Below are positions 12,001 through 15,000 of a stretch of DNA of 18,561 nt, in pieces (position 1 is the first letter of the stretch; each line of letters begins with the position of its first letter). The position numbers were made by a program. Source of the DNA: a virus. Taxonomy: Duplodnaviria > Heunggongvirae > Uroviricota > Caudoviricetes. The stretch lies in IMG/VR virus record IMGVR_UViG_2671180846_000018, one strand, 5' to 3'.

Positions 12001-15000
12001 CTGGCCTGAAATTCGGTGACTACGGCTCCATCGATTATGGCCGTAACTACGGTGTAGCATACGATATTGGTGCATGGACCGACGTTCTGCCAGAATTCGG
12101 TGGCGATACCTGGACCCAAACAGATGTATTCATGACTGGTCGCACCACAGGTGTTGCAACTTATCGTAACAATGACTTCTTTGGTCTGGTTGATGGTCTG
12201 AACTTTGCTGCTCAGTATCAGGGTAAAAATGACCGTACTGACGTAACTCAAGCTAATGGTGATGGTTTCGGTTTCTCCACTACTTATGAGTATGAAGGTT
12301 TCGGCGTAGGTGCAACCTATGCTAAATCTGATCGCACTAATAATCAGGTTATCTACGGTAACAACAGCCTGAATGCATCTGGTCAAAATGCTGAAGTATG
12401 GGCAGCTGGTCTGAAATATGATGCGAACAACATCTATCTGGCTACTACCTATTCTGAAACCCAAAACATGACTGTTTTTGGTAAAAACCATATTGCCAAC
12501 AAAGCACAAAACTTCGAAGTAGTTGCACAATATCAGTTCGACTTCGGTCTGCGTCCGTCCGTTGCTTATCTGCAATCTAAAGGGAAAGACTTGGGTGCTT
12601 GGGGTGATCAGGACCTGGTTGAATATATTGATGTAGGTGCAACCTATTACTTCAACAAAAATATGTCCACTTTTGTTGACTACAAAATCAACCTGATTGA
12701 TAAGAGCGATTTCACGAAAGCATCTGGCGTTGCTACCGATGATATCGTTGCTGTAGGTATGGTTTACCAGTTCTAATTTGATTACTAAAACATATGTTGT
12801 GGGAGGCTTTGCCTCCCCAACATATAAGTGGCTCCCTCAAGCCACTTCCTTTAGAAGCACAACCTTGCTTCTAACTATATAAACCTTCTGTTATATATTA
12901 CCCTTTATTTTTGGGGGCGTTTCAACGCCCCATTCTTAATAATTTTTAGTAAACAATTGGCATATTAATTAGAGTTATTAACAACGATATCCATCTCTAA
13001 CCGGATATCTAATGCCATTAACATCCCTTCAATTATGCCCTCAGCCTTCTGTAACCTTTTCCCGATATAACCATCAGAGCAGCAATGCTTACCTGCCAGT
13101 GACATGAATGTCATACCGACTACATAATAATCTACTAATAAATCGTGCAAATCGCTGTTGTTCTTTTTCAGACGGGCCATGCACCCGCAAATGATCATCG
13201 CGTCATCGTCACAACATTGCGGGCGAGATTTTACTTTTGAAGTAATTAATCCCTTAAAACCGGCGGCAATGGACGACCAGGTCACATCTTCATGATTATT
13301 AGCCGCCCACGCTCCCCAACGCTCAAGAACCATCTGAATATCACGCATCAACTTACTCCACAAAAATCAGACCAGAACGCCAATTACAAGCAAAAATCAA
13401 CGAAACAGTATTAGTTGATTGTTATCTCTGACTTCATACTCCTGCTCCTGTCAGGGTTTTGGCGTAATTCTTCAGTATTCGGTAATCGGTCAAAACAGAA
13501 CCGGGGAAACGATATAAGCGCAGACGCCCCCAGCGGTGGCGAAGACGTTCTGCCATATAAAACTCAAACATCATTCATTCCCCATTTCGGTGATGGTCAG
13601 TTCCAGCCTCCCACCTTTGGTAACAGGCATCTTCACAACGCGGTAATCAACGACCTGAGCATCATCCAGCCAGAAACCTGCTTTAGTGAGTGCGTCAAAA
13701 GCGGCTTTTTGCAGATTATCCAGGTCACGGCGACGGCGATCCGGCATGTGGCACTCAATGCGGATTTTCACAGGCATAGCCAAGCCGATATCCAGCATTG
13801 CGTTTTTAATGATTCGGGCGACGTTATCGCGGTATGCCTGCCCCTCTGCGCTGACGTGCGTGCGCCCGCGATTATGGCGGTAATAGCGATTATTGCTCGG
13901 AGGCCAGGGTAATGTGATGCTGTAGGTATTCACGCCTTGATTACCCCCTCTTTCAGCCAGATAACCTGCGTTCTCGCCATACCTTCCAGCGCGCATTCTT
14001 TTGCGTACTCAGCATCGACAAAATGCGTGCGGCGGTCGATTTCGTCGTGACAGGCAGAACAGGCAATGGTGGCAATAAGGTCTGGCGGTTTAATACCGGT
14101 GCCACACAGTCCAGCCAGCCGGATATGTGCCAGTACAGACGTTTCAGGGTTGCCATTGCATACGCCAGGGATTCTTACCTGGCATTCGCGACCACGCGCT
14201 GCTTTTCTCAAATCAGCCATGATTCCTCCTTGCTGCCAGTCGCAACCATTTTTTATCAACCAGGCTGGCGGTATATCCGAGCAGTGTTGGTATTTCGGAT
14301 GGTTTTAGCTCAGGCTTACGCTTACGACGATTTGGTACTCTGTAGATGTGTCCGTTCATGACACGAATAAGCGGTGTAGCCATTACGCCTCCTGCTTGTC
14401 GCGCAGCAGCTGGAACTCGCAGCTCTGCGGAATAGTCAGGTGGCAGCCAATATTCATCGCCCAGGCTTCAACCTTACACAGGAAGACATACATCTCTCCG
14501 GTATCAAGATCGGAGGTATGGCGTAACGACTGGATAGTAGTGATTTCGCCGGTTACGACATCAACCAGGTCCTTGGTTTCATAACCGAGGTATGTGTGTT
14601 TGAGAGCATCTTTTACCCATGCTGCGGTAGCGAACGATTTCCCCCTGCGGATAAGGTATTCACTGATTTCGCTGTACCACATGTGGCTAAGTGCATTCTG
14701 GGAAAGACTGCGTCTCTCGCGCCACGGTTTAAGCACCATGCGAAAGCACTTGCCGTCTTCCAAATAAGGCTGGAGCTGCTGACCGATAGCGGTGAAGTTA
14801 CCGCGATGCAGTTTGATGCCGTCTTGTGGGAGGTTCACGCTTCACCTCCGCAGAGGTCAAACGCTGGATAAAGAAAATCGCAGGTGCATTTCTGCATCTG
14901 TGACGGGAGAAGATAGTTTAGATTGTATGTGCGCATAAACGTCCCCGTTTAGCGCAGAAGTCACCGGAGGAGTTCAAACTCCGGTGACTTAATTATGACA

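Follow-up and report, generated by a model that had tools for sequence, protein, structure and literature searches.

A direct repeat flanking accessory genes in a lambdoid prophage is probably a duplicated promoter and predicted RNA leader element

The closest described relatives of the repeat studied here lie in phage 82, in the DLP12 prophage of Escherichia coli K-12 and in phage phi80. The phage 82 record (X92588) annotates, before orf151/ybcN, putative -35 and -10 hexamers, a "possible regulator-binding site", a ribosome-binding site and orf33, while the phi80 record annotates an inverted repeat as IR4 and DLP12 carries ylcH. In lambda, the slot before the first nin gene is filled by tR2, an intrinsic terminator between ren and ninB with the sequence GGCCUGCUGGUAAUCGCAGGCC then UUUUUAUUU. 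Other lambdoid elements, HK022 put and lambda nut (boxA/boxB), are stem-loops of early transcripts near the promoter. In pyrBI-type leader-peptide attenuators and coupled upstream open reading frames (ORFs), a terminator-like hairpin is spanned by a short ORF whose end coincides with the start of the regulated gene. As for accessory genes, antirepressor-type blocks are described in the c4-icd-ant arrangement of P1/P7 immI and in isrK-anrP of Salmonella Gifsy-1, and classical morons bring their own promoter and terminator.

Here, we analyzed an 18,561-nt stretch of a Caudoviricetes genome (IMG/VR record IMGVR_UViG_2671180846_000018; hereafter the window), in which an initial annotation made from the sequence alone had noticed two imperfect 92-bp copies of a direct repeat, with an identical core of 44 bp that folds as an inverted repeat. 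The two copies (14874-14965 and 17196-17287) are indeed in register at an offset of 2322, with five substitutions in 92 nt and no indels (copy 1/copy 2: 14887 C/T, 14903 A/G, 14904 C/A, 14914 T/G and 14920 A/G), but perfect matching extends over at most 46 nt (14921-14966). The inverted repeat, GCGCATAAACG-TCCC-CGTTTAGCGC, is found in both copies, at 14931-14955 and 17253-17277. By repeat search, the pair extends to 162 nt with 81% identity (14859-15020 and 17181-17342) and is the sole long repeat family within the window. Both repeats are copies of an element of ~190 nt, which we call E, that runs from a -35 hexamer through the start codon of the next gene. When the window was scanned with a covariance model of E, exactly two sites were found, both on the minus strand, scoring 149 and 133 bits.

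Copy 1, the downstream copy (14859-15020, minus strand; its core gives the 149-bit score), lies intact before ybcN. STEC/O157 genomes carry it unchanged (100% identity), and identity is 86-90% in phage 82 (88% over 162 nt), DLP12 and many prophages. A promoter scan places a promoter-like element at 14992-15020, with TTGATT (15020-15015), a 17-bp spacer and CATAAT (14997-14992) with TG before it, and folding predicts three hairpins behind it. Hairpin 1 (14960-14988) has a 10-bp stem (GUCACCGGAG/CUCCGGUGAC) and a 9-nt loop with UGAAC. Hairpin 2 (14931-14955; GCGCUAAACG-GGGA-CGUUUA(U)GCGC) is the inverted repeat mentioned above, which is both the "possible regulator-binding site" of phage 82 and the IR4 of phi80; its loop holds the Shine-Dalgarno sequence of a small ORF, the AUG of which falls in the 3' arm. 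This upstream ORF of 33 codons (14835-14936, minus strand; orf33 of phage 82; WP_072097617.1 in the PGAP annotation) contains hairpin 3 (CAG-A-UGCA GAAA UGCA-C-CUG, 14900-14881), which together with a U-rich tract, UUUUCUUUA (14878-14870), occupies 14870-14900 and is terminator-like by scan. The TGA stop of the ORF overlaps the GTG start of ybcN (14383-14838, minus strand; NinB/Orf-like by Pfam and PGAP), the head of the ybcN-ninE-ybcO-rusA-ylcG-quuD(Q) block that copy 1 serves. As a whole, copy 1 folds with a predicted energy of -44.5 kcal/mol (z = -5.7).

Copy 2, the upstream copy (17181-17342, minus strand; 133 bits), heads an isrK-C4-ant module. Its promoter hexamers are degenerate (TTAATT/AATTAT), only six pairs are left in hairpin 1, one pair of hairpin 3 is broken by a G-to-A change (plus-strand position 17209), and PGAP calls its small ORF a truncated pseudogene. 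In the reading we favor, copy 1 is under full constraint and copy 2 is a decaying duplicate. On the minus strand between the copies, the head of the cassette (16816-17038) consists of a promoter-like TTGACG-18-TATATT (17038-17009), isrK RNA (16928-17000; Rfam 64.1 bits, gathering threshold 50) and C4 antisense RNA (16816-16903; 82.5 bits, gathering threshold 45), with a c4-a1b1 target match of 40.6 bits that is under its Rfam threshold. There follow an antirepressor-type gene with Bro-N and P22AR C-terminal domains (16156-16764; Pfam Bro-N 2e-13, P22_AR_C 1.5e-16; a PGAP CDS) and, as the variable cargo of this prophage, a gene for a HEPN protein (15440-15856; Pfam HEPN 3e-06, PADLOC PDC-M28A 1.8e-07), which overlaps the gene for a 133-aa partner (15060-15461). 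The partner matches no Pfam, PADLOC or NCBIfam family, and PDB sequence searches gave hits at chance level only. This HEPN operon is present in 190 E. coli genomes, at >=99% identity in every one. A statement in the initial annotation that the repeats bracket exactly the Bro-N gene and the HEPN operon therefore holds in that both lie inside, but isrK, C4 and their promoter lie inside as well. In the cassette region, the terminator scan found no further terminator-like site between the HEPN operon and ybcN. Beyond copy 2, a plus-strand neighbor gene (17517-17864) falls in a Pfam family that takes its name from integron cassette proteins.

We then determined how widespread E is. Matches occur in 4255 of 5426 complete E. 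coli genomes (~78%), at a median of one and a maximum of four places per genome, and E is thus not the generic dispersed repeat that the initial annotation had considered. In lambdoid prophages, it is found once and in one orientation, between replication or accessory genes and the first gene of the nin/Q operon, immediately 5' of ybcN or ninB (e.g., in phage 82, phi80, HK639 and DLP12, where it holds ylcH). Further sequence matches are present in HK225, in prophages of Enterobacter, Citrobacter and other enterobacteria, and in Klebsiella phages. At ybcN loci that have E, it is directly upstream of ybcN in all. Scanning for an invariant 22-mer of E yielded 121 sites for a survey of context, with ybcN next in 86; at 33 others that were examined, a NinB-like ORF of 145-149 aa is next in all but three, one of these ORFs being confirmed as NinB (Pfam 5.5e-50). 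At the three exceptional sites, the next gene is Q (Pfam Antiterm 1.1e-50), a DUF968 gene or the ant module. Every context examined is a prophage nin region or a remnant of one. A link to IS200/IS605 elements, suggested by a "tnpA" label under some E. coli matches, was rejected: the loci are DLP12-like remnants with an insertion sequence next to or within E. At gathering score, neither copy is covered by an Rfam 15 family; when E-values as high as 10 are admitted, a single overlap appears, with a Streptococcus sRNA model at a chance-level 18.8 bits (threshold 48 bits). We found no description of E in the literature searched.

Comparison of 144 unique homologues points to a conserved sigma-70 promoter in E, predicted from hexamers spaced by 17 +/- 1 bp: 113 have TTGATT at -35, 101 have CATAAT at -10, and 135 have a 17-bp spacer. 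Among ybcN-proximal copies with unrelated cargo upstream, conservation begins near the -35 hexamer, and strong terminators adjoin this hexamer in five unique sequences, Huaxiibacter and Siccibacter relatives among them. A palindrome over the -35 (TTGAT-N8-ATCAA) was considered as an FNR-type operator and rejected because the spacing is wrong for FNR (N4) and the second half is unconserved in some subtypes. At the other end of E, the small ORF is open in 141/141 unique homologues, mostly with 31-33 codons and a variable peptide, and in 138 of them its stop lies within an (A/G)TGA that overlaps the next start codon.

Next, we asked how the predicted structure has changed among relatives. An alignment of 91 sequences by MAFFT with RNAalifold was discarded, hairpin 2 being misaligned across subtypes with a spurious helix as the result, and a covariance-model alignment was used instead. 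In this alignment, which was fitted to the model and in which many sequences had been gathered with the exact hairpin-3 pattern, 96.5% of cells pair (81.2% when shuffled), compensatory changes affect 22 of the 27 pairs, and covariation scores 0.411, compared with 0.131 for shuffles and no more than 0.054 with partners slid. Compensatory changes are seen in eight of ten pairs of hairpin 1, with many G-U pairs, and in nine of ten pairs of hairpin 2. Hairpin 3 hardly varies between genera, and only Siccibacter and Phytobacter relatives have compensatory changes in it; this apparent invariance is inflated because many of the sequences were collected by the exact hairpin-3 pattern. An alternative 9-bp helix, which would compete with it, can form in 94% of cells but covaries no more than shuffles do; since hairpin 3 is almost invariant, covariation does not tell the two apart. 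Pairs kept by compensatory changes, together with a fixed position and orientation before the downstream gene, suggest that E is a structured cis-regulatory RNA leader. Of the two origins offered by the initial annotation for the repeat, a duplicated regulatory element is supported by this picture of a conserved promoter-leader module with hairpins covarying at the RNA level.

RNA 3' ends mapped in K-12 bear on the hairpins. By Term-seq, an RNA 3' terminus maps to 572349/572350, 19 nt upstream of the ylcH AUG (Adams 2021, PMC7815308); seen under two growth conditions, it is 5-6 nt past the DLP12 homologue of hairpin 1. The same data set reports no 3' end after hairpin 3 (PMC7815308), and the ylcH RNA is listed as a unit of its own in K-12 (PMC8910356). 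Hairpin 1 has a strong 10-bp stem followed only by UUCU, and its 3' end in K-12 could reflect exonuclease trimming instead of termination. Hairpin 3 has an interrupted stem of 7-10 bp (-10.5 kcal/mol) followed by UUUUCUUUA or UUUUUUGCA, and the U-tract behind it varies, being weak in many relatives including K-12 (AAUUCUUU, GAUAUCUU).

How does E compare with the systems described above? With the phage 82 orf33 region, DLP12 ylcH and phi80 IR4, it forms one sequence family. Those records hold putative features only, whereas the window has two copies, and the present comparison adds evidence of a structure at the RNA level, of the translational overlap and of several different downstream genes. 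E occupies the slot of lambda tR2, and hairpin 1 in K-12 likewise yields an RNA 3' end; the two share no sequence similarity, however, and E has weak U-tracts and brings along two more hairpins as well as an upstream ORF and a promoter. Searched with the E model at E-values as high as 10, neither lambda (35-45.5 kb) nor the entire HK022 genome gave a match. Like pyrBI-type attenuators, E has a short ORF that crosses a terminator-like hairpin and ends on the next start, its own start being in a hairpin, but neither regulatory codons nor mapped pause sites are evident, and the alternative helix is without covariation support. As with put and nut, its stem-loops belong to an early transcript and are near a promoter, and hairpin 3 has a GNRA loop; unlike them, E spans phages with differing early antitermination systems (phi80, HK639 and phage 82). 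Homology to put or nut was rejected, there being no model match in HK022 or lambda and a boxA-like CUCUCUUCU before hairpin 3 in the E. coli subtype only. The likeness to P1/P7 immI and Gifsy-1 resides in the isrK, C4 and Bro-N/P22AR gene of the copy-2 block and concerns the cargo, not the repeat. Lambdoid morons and accessory hotspots, including those with BstA and PD-lambda, provide cargo comparable to that found between or just upstream of E copies, but here, in contrast to classical morons, the insert is flanked by a copy of the leader of the host operon.

Related prophages keep the order E, ant module, variable cargo, E. In five two-copy loci (L003, L004, L046, L057 and L060), an ant gene 76-83% identical to that of the window directly follows the upstream E, and three more (L100, L107 and L226) have a homologous ant ORF in the same position, an antirepressor-type gene being the constant partner of the upstream E in ant-containing arrangements. 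What lies between or just upstream of the E copies includes BstA, the HEPN pair, a cloacin-type bacteriocin with its immunity gene, and PD-lambda-1. The initial annotation had proposed looking for other cargo between such repeats, and it exists: five further ant-containing arrangements hold other cargo, one of them BstA, and an ant-less locus (L199) has a bacteriocin cluster between its E copies. Upstream copies differ from their partners at 4 to 28 positions. No single-copy relative with the same upstream neighbor (17343-18068) was seen among the loci examined.

We consider it probable that both repeats are copies of E, a promoter plus structured leader that serves as a gate or insulator before the Q operon, duplicated by homologous exchange. 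E would act from the minus strand, as DNA through its promoter and as RNA through its leader. Unmodified transcripts, whether from upstream cargo or from the E promoter, would be halted before Q at hairpin 1 and at hairpin 3 with its U-tract, and antiterminated early transcripts would read through. Ribosomes on the upstream ORF may unfold hairpin 3 and expose the ribosome-binding site of the gene that follows, resulting in translational coupling. The duplication itself likely arose by ordinary homologous exchange between phages at the conserved E sequence, the product of which would be upstream E, isrK-C4-antirepressor module, variable cargo, downstream E and ybcN. A gate or insulator gives no role to the conserved UGAAC loop of hairpin 1.

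Other readings of the repeat were weighed against this one. The second origin put forward in the initial annotation, cassette insertion between repeated sites, would make the copies the ends of a mobile cassette, either att-like or attC-like sites for a site-specific recombinase or repeats derived from an insertion target. Two direct copies do flank accessory genes, the cargo between copies varies among prophages, and the neighbor gene at 17517-17864 carries an integron-cassette family name. Nevertheless, in thousands of genomes E normally occurs as one copy with a fixed place and orientation before ninB/ybcN; no recombinase gene is found in the neighborhood of the repeats by Pfam or in the PGAP annotation; and the 160-nt repeat is bounded by a -35 hexamer and the ribosome-binding site of the next gene, with no short crossover core. 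Moreover, the stem changes are compensatory or G-U, fitting RNA better than a DNA core recognized by a protein, upstream copies have diverged from their partners, and the constant partner of the upstream E is the antirepressor module rather than the HEPN operon. A case that the initial annotation had named as contrary to such insertion also exists, since E. coli EC21Z-014 has the same HEPN operon with a single E and a breakpoint inside the ant gene. A site-specific mechanism is unsupported by these data, and we give mobile cassette ends hardly any credence. That E is a mere conserved recombination joint of lambdoid phages, a "boundary sequence" whose duplication is a neutral by-product, would account for the mosaic flanks, the cargo before E being unrelated from one prophage to another, and for the decay of copy 2. 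Neutral joints would not, however, keep compensatory pairing, a 17-bp promoter spacing and an ORF with multiple-of-three indels, all of which are kept across Escherichia, Enterobacter, Citrobacter, Huaxiibacter and Siccibacter, and we regard this reading as improbable.

Two further readings take E to be a gene in its own right. A free-standing trans-acting sRNA gene in two copies, producing an RNA of ~110 nt that ends at hairpin 3 and its U-tract or one of ~35 nt that ends past hairpin 1, would be in keeping with the conserved promoter, a 5' stem-loop at the start and a terminator-like hairpin with U-tract at the end, the K-12 3' end after hairpin 1 and the separate listing of ylcH RNA, and with invariant sequences in hairpin 3 and the hairpin 1 loop such as a trans-acting seed might have. 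However, since the small ORF is open and overlaps the downstream start in nearly all variants, E is tied to the gene behind it, to which it is always directly joined; the U-tract is variable, and neither an Rfam family nor a paper in the literature searched matches such an RNA. We therefore find an sRNA gene rather unlikely. Conservation might instead be coding constraint on a 33-residue protein, YlcH/Orf33, with PGAP annotating a 33-aa CDS in copy 1 and treating its counterpart in copy 2 as a truncated pseudogene, and with the reading frame kept across subtypes. Against this, all five substitutions between the copies alter the peptide, which varies at most positions among relatives while the RNA pairing stays, and on these grounds coding constraint on the peptide was rejected. 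In a Siccibacter relative, two amino-acid changes correspond precisely to the two halves of a single compensatory base-pair change. Conservation also runs well upstream of the ORF, over hairpin 1 and the promoter, and the peptide has no match in Pfam or NCBIfam, making a conserved protein very improbable as the explanation.

The repeat itself is an ordinary joint of phage mosaicism, and the widespread element underlying it is of more interest. We tentatively raise the possibility, which we hold to be rather doubtful, that E is an unrecognized portable transcription gate, combining a terminator/insulator, a promoter and an upstream-ORF switch for the Q operon, with a leader RNA that might act in trans. 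If so, entry of RNA polymerase and ribosomes into this operon, whose last gene is the late activator Q, would be under the control of E, and a duplicated E would let lysogenically expressed cargo (antirepressor, defense genes, bacteriocins) adjoin Q without leakage. A short leader RNA, once released, might act in trans via the invariant hairpin 3 or the UGAAC loop. Gating of the Q operon by E would bear on the silence of late and toxin genes in Shiga-toxin and other prophages, and would help explain how defense and competition cargo can be inserted beside Q without triggering lysis. In addition, E is a practical landmark for accessory-gene hotspots in lambdoid prophages.

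The 92-bp imperfect direct repeat described in the initial annotation (14874-14965 and 17196-17287) was recovered with 5 substitutions, no indels and an offset of 2322, and the inverted repeat of its core was located at 14931-14955 and 17253-17277; the identical core is present as well but measures 46 nt (14921-14966), not 44 nt. Weaker similarity extends to 162 nt (14859-15020 and 17181-17342, 81%). Chance is not a reasonable explanation for this pair, the sole long repeat found in a repeat search of the window. The 162-nt unit, hereafter E, is read on the minus strand, copy 1 being downstream and copy 2 upstream.

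All 162 nt of E align at 88% identity with the beginning of phage 82 record X92588. There, the depositors annotated a putative -35/-10, a ribosome-binding site and orf33 before orf151 (ybcN), and marked the inverted repeat as a "possible regulator-binding site." In phi80, the same inverted repeat is annotated as IR4, before a ybcN-like gene. Matches to E occur in 4255 of 5426 complete Escherichia coli genomes, with a median of 1 and a maximum of 4 places per genome. The single-copy relatives without cassette that the initial annotation proposed to look for are common: most matches to a 3.2-kb query span only E, ybcN and ninE, as in K-12. E lies directly upstream of ybcN in all of the ~100 loci fetched via YbcN, and a scan of viral contigs for its invariant 22-mer gave 121 sites, with ybcN next in 86. 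After all but three of the 33 other sites examined come a NinB-like ORF (145-149 aa; in one example identified as NinB by Pfam, 5.5e-50) and, behind it, a NinE-like ORF; genes found next in single cases are DUF968, antitermination protein Q (Pfam 1.1e-50) and an antirepressor module. Since the contexts behind E range from ybcN and NinB-like genes to DUF968, Q and the antirepressor module, E is the head of the Q-leading operon, whichever gene comes first. We rejected a dispersed repeat because of the median of one place per E. coli genome and the fixed site at the operon head. In two E. coli chromosomes (L005 and L006), a DLP12-like remnant occupies a second chromosomal site: an emrE-ybcL-ybcM fragment that includes a truncated E is fixed there between fliE and yedK/yedE and is broken up by IS200/IS605 (TnpB) and IS5 elements.

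On the minus strand, E begins with a putative promoter-like pair, TTGATT-17 bp-CATAAT (15020-14992). Of 144 unique homologues, 113 have the -35 TTGATT, 101 the -10 CATAAT and 135 the 17-bp spacer. Where the cargo ahead of ybcN-proximal copies is unrelated, conservation sets in approximately at the -35 hexamer, which a strong terminator abuts in five unique sequences, Huaxiibacter and Siccibacter relatives among them. This hexamer is also the left half of a palindrome, TTGAT-N8-ATCAA (14996-15020, minus strand; also in homologues), and the direct repeat CCATAATCA is found twice in many homologues; these might represent an operator. An FNR site was rejected because the two halves are not spaced as FNR requires and not all homologues share the right half.

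Three RNA hairpins are predicted on the same strand. The stem of hairpin 1 (14988-14960) varies freely in sequence with pairing kept, often by G-U pairs, which are functional only as RNA of the minus strand, and its loop (14970-14978) keeps UGAAC, as YYUGAACAN across homologues; a CUGAAC motif recurs in the spacer of Enterobacter-type copies. Hairpin 2 (14955-14931), the inverted repeat of the core, has stems that are wholly different among subtypes (UAAACG/CGUUUA, AUUUAAG/CUUAAAU and UUUGAG/CUCAAAG). Its GGGA loop is the Shine-Dalgarno of a small ORF (orf33 of phage 82, ylcH in the DLP12 prophage of K-12), with the AUG in the 3' arm. The spacer of E is poor in G and rich in C (mean 1.5 G and 10.7 C per 29 nt). 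Hairpin 3 (14900-14881), with a GAAA loop followed by a U-rich tract, is almost invariant, compensatory changes being restricted to Siccibacter and Phytobacter relatives, and a competing helix around it is not separable from it; the U-tracts of E are weak or variable. The small ORF, which has 33 codons in the window and mostly 31-33 overall, is open in 141 of 141 unique sequences and encodes a variable peptide; its stop lies within (A/G)TGA overlapping the next start codon in 138 of them. By eye, CCUC-N3-4-GAGG just before the ybcN/ninB start (14838-14860, minus strand; also in homologues) forms a possible 4-bp mini-hairpin over the Shine-Dalgarno, sequestration that would fit dependence on upstream-ORF translation.

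A covariance model trained on 20 copies of the E. coli type matched 85 sites from 79 sources, and only the two repeat copies in the window. On its alignment, which biases the figures toward structure because it is fitted to the model, 96.5% of cells are paired (81.2% when shuffled), compensatory changes occur at 22 of 27 pairs, and the covariation score is 0.411 (0.131 shuffled and ≤0.054 with slid partners). For hairpins 1 and 2, visual inspection of an independent MAFFT alignment still shows the effect plainly. The fold energy is -44.5 kcal/mol for copy 1 (z = -5.7) and only -31.4 kcal/mol for copy 2 (z = -2.5). The K-12 homologue in DLP12 is the source of all the in vivo evidence. Term-seq data for two growth conditions (Adams et al. 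2021, PMC7815308, supplementary files 1 and 3) list at 572349/572350 (+) an RNA 3' end classed as "orphan" and supported by 1585 and 1859 reads, which the sequence in the entry places at ...CUCCGGUGACUUCUG, 5-6 nt past the hairpin 1 stem and 19 nt ahead of the ylcH AUG. The same listing contains no 3' end after hairpin 3, where the K-12 U-tract is weak. In a transcriptome table (PMC8910356), ylcH RNA is a separate unit, 2-fold up in microaerobic growth. E is a conserved module that acts at the RNA level and is joined to the leading gene of the nin/Q operon, and the suggestion of a duplicated regulatory element was right.

The window is a DLP12-like lambdoid prophage in reverse orientation, so the rightward phage operon lies on the minus strand. 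Replication gene P ends at 18069, and an accessory gene of 115 aa (17517-17864, plus strand; Pfam VCH_CASS14, "integron cassette protein," 5.7e-20), with no integron features nearby, diverges from copy 2. Copy 2 is followed on the minus strand by a promoter-like TTGACG-18-TATATT and then isrK RNA and C4 antisense RNA (16816-17038; Rfam, 64.1 and 82.5 bits, with a c4-a1b1 target match below threshold), the Bro-N/P22AR antirepressor gene (16764-16156), and a HEPN gene with an overlapping 133-aa gene (15856-15060). The isrK-C4-antirepressor block resembles P1 immI or the Gifsy-1 isrK control module, here inside a DLP12-type prophage. The HEPN protein weakly matches the PADLOC candidate PDC-M28A, and its gene overlaps the partner gene by 22 nt; the partner matches nothing in Pfam, PADLOC or NCBIfam and has only chance-level PDB matches, so it is not a recognizable MNT antitoxin.

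In a direct comparison, five two-copy loci share the plan of the window: upstream E, an isrK-C4-antirepressor module (76-83% identical to the window's) joined directly to it, cargo of 0.7-1.3 kb unrelated to the window's, downstream E and ybcN. Antirepressor ORFs and covariance-model matches indicate the same plan in L100, L107 (E. coli S21) and L226; in L107, the cargo segment is longer and includes IS3, beside which BstA, an abortive-infection defense protein, occupies the slot between the antirepressor gene and downstream E (6310-7254; PADLOC 3.8e-121). In the viral contig L199 (6848-11919), the two copies surround a tail fiber-like protein, a 620-aa Pyocin_S/Cytotoxic bacteriocin (cloacin-type) and a cloacin immunity protein, with no antirepressor module and with Q immediately behind downstream E. 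The homology shared by upstream and downstream copies stops ~15 nt short of the ybcN ribosome-binding site. Constraint is weaker on upstream copies, which differ from their own downstream partner at 4 to 28 positions over a 123-nt core (16 in the window). In copy 2 of the window, the promoter hexamers are degenerate, hairpin 1 is broken, one hairpin 3 pair is disrupted by a G-to-A change, and the small ORF continues into unrelated sequence (a pseudogene according to PGAP); the window has one intact and one decayed copy. The upstream copies of L046 and L226 are fully intact.

As its alternative, the initial annotation offered an insertion footprint left by recombination at repeated sites, with the cassette as an exchangeable unit. 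The cargo does vary (the HEPN pair here, BstA in S21, proteins without assigned function elsewhere), but a site-specific mechanism is unsupported. The HEPN operon, found in 190 E. coli genomes at ≥99% identity (176 with the full arrangement), occurs in strain EC21Z-014 (L228, 3633-4045) with a single E, behind ren and a TagO-like gene, which indicates that the cassette does not require a bracketing repeat. There, the antirepressor gene is reduced to its last ~110 nt and homology to the window begins at 16267, pointing to a recombination or deletion breakpoint inside that gene. Homologous exchange at E between phages with different neighbors is the simplest explanation of the duplication, and the repeat in the window is ordinary mosaicism.

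As to function, we infer that E is a gate and insulator. Unmodified transcripts coming from upstream cargo, including genes expected to be on in lysogens, or from E's own putative promoter would be halted by hairpin 1, as the K-12 3' end supports, and perhaps also by hairpin 3 and its U-tract. When the small ORF is translated, hairpin 3 and the following ribosome-binding site would be opened; transcripts that start at the early promoter and are antiterminated would pass. Such a gate would block leakage into Q, which would be expected to harm the lysogen, and could explain why the copy beside ybcN...Q stays intact behind the HEPN operon; a terminator scan of the window found no terminator-like site other than E between that operon and ybcN. 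In lambda, the ren-ninB slot holds no E-like sequence and is instead occupied by the strong terminator tR2. E belongs to a known kind, the leader/terminator modules before phage late-regulator operons. We found no description of it as such in the literature searched and no Rfam family covering it, and it is widespread enough to deserve an RNA-family entry.

After copy 1, the operon continues with ybcN, ninE, ybcO, rusA, ylcG and quuD (Q). Between Q and the lysis genes, the opposite strand carries a porin gene (11694-12776, plus strand; ompC in the RefSeq match), and lysis and head genes lie beyond it. In the 3.2 kb compared, the window shares 100% identity with STEC strain E2865 and 99.9% with O157:H7 strains; the matching genome record has an iss/bor-type lipoprotein gene behind the lysis genes.
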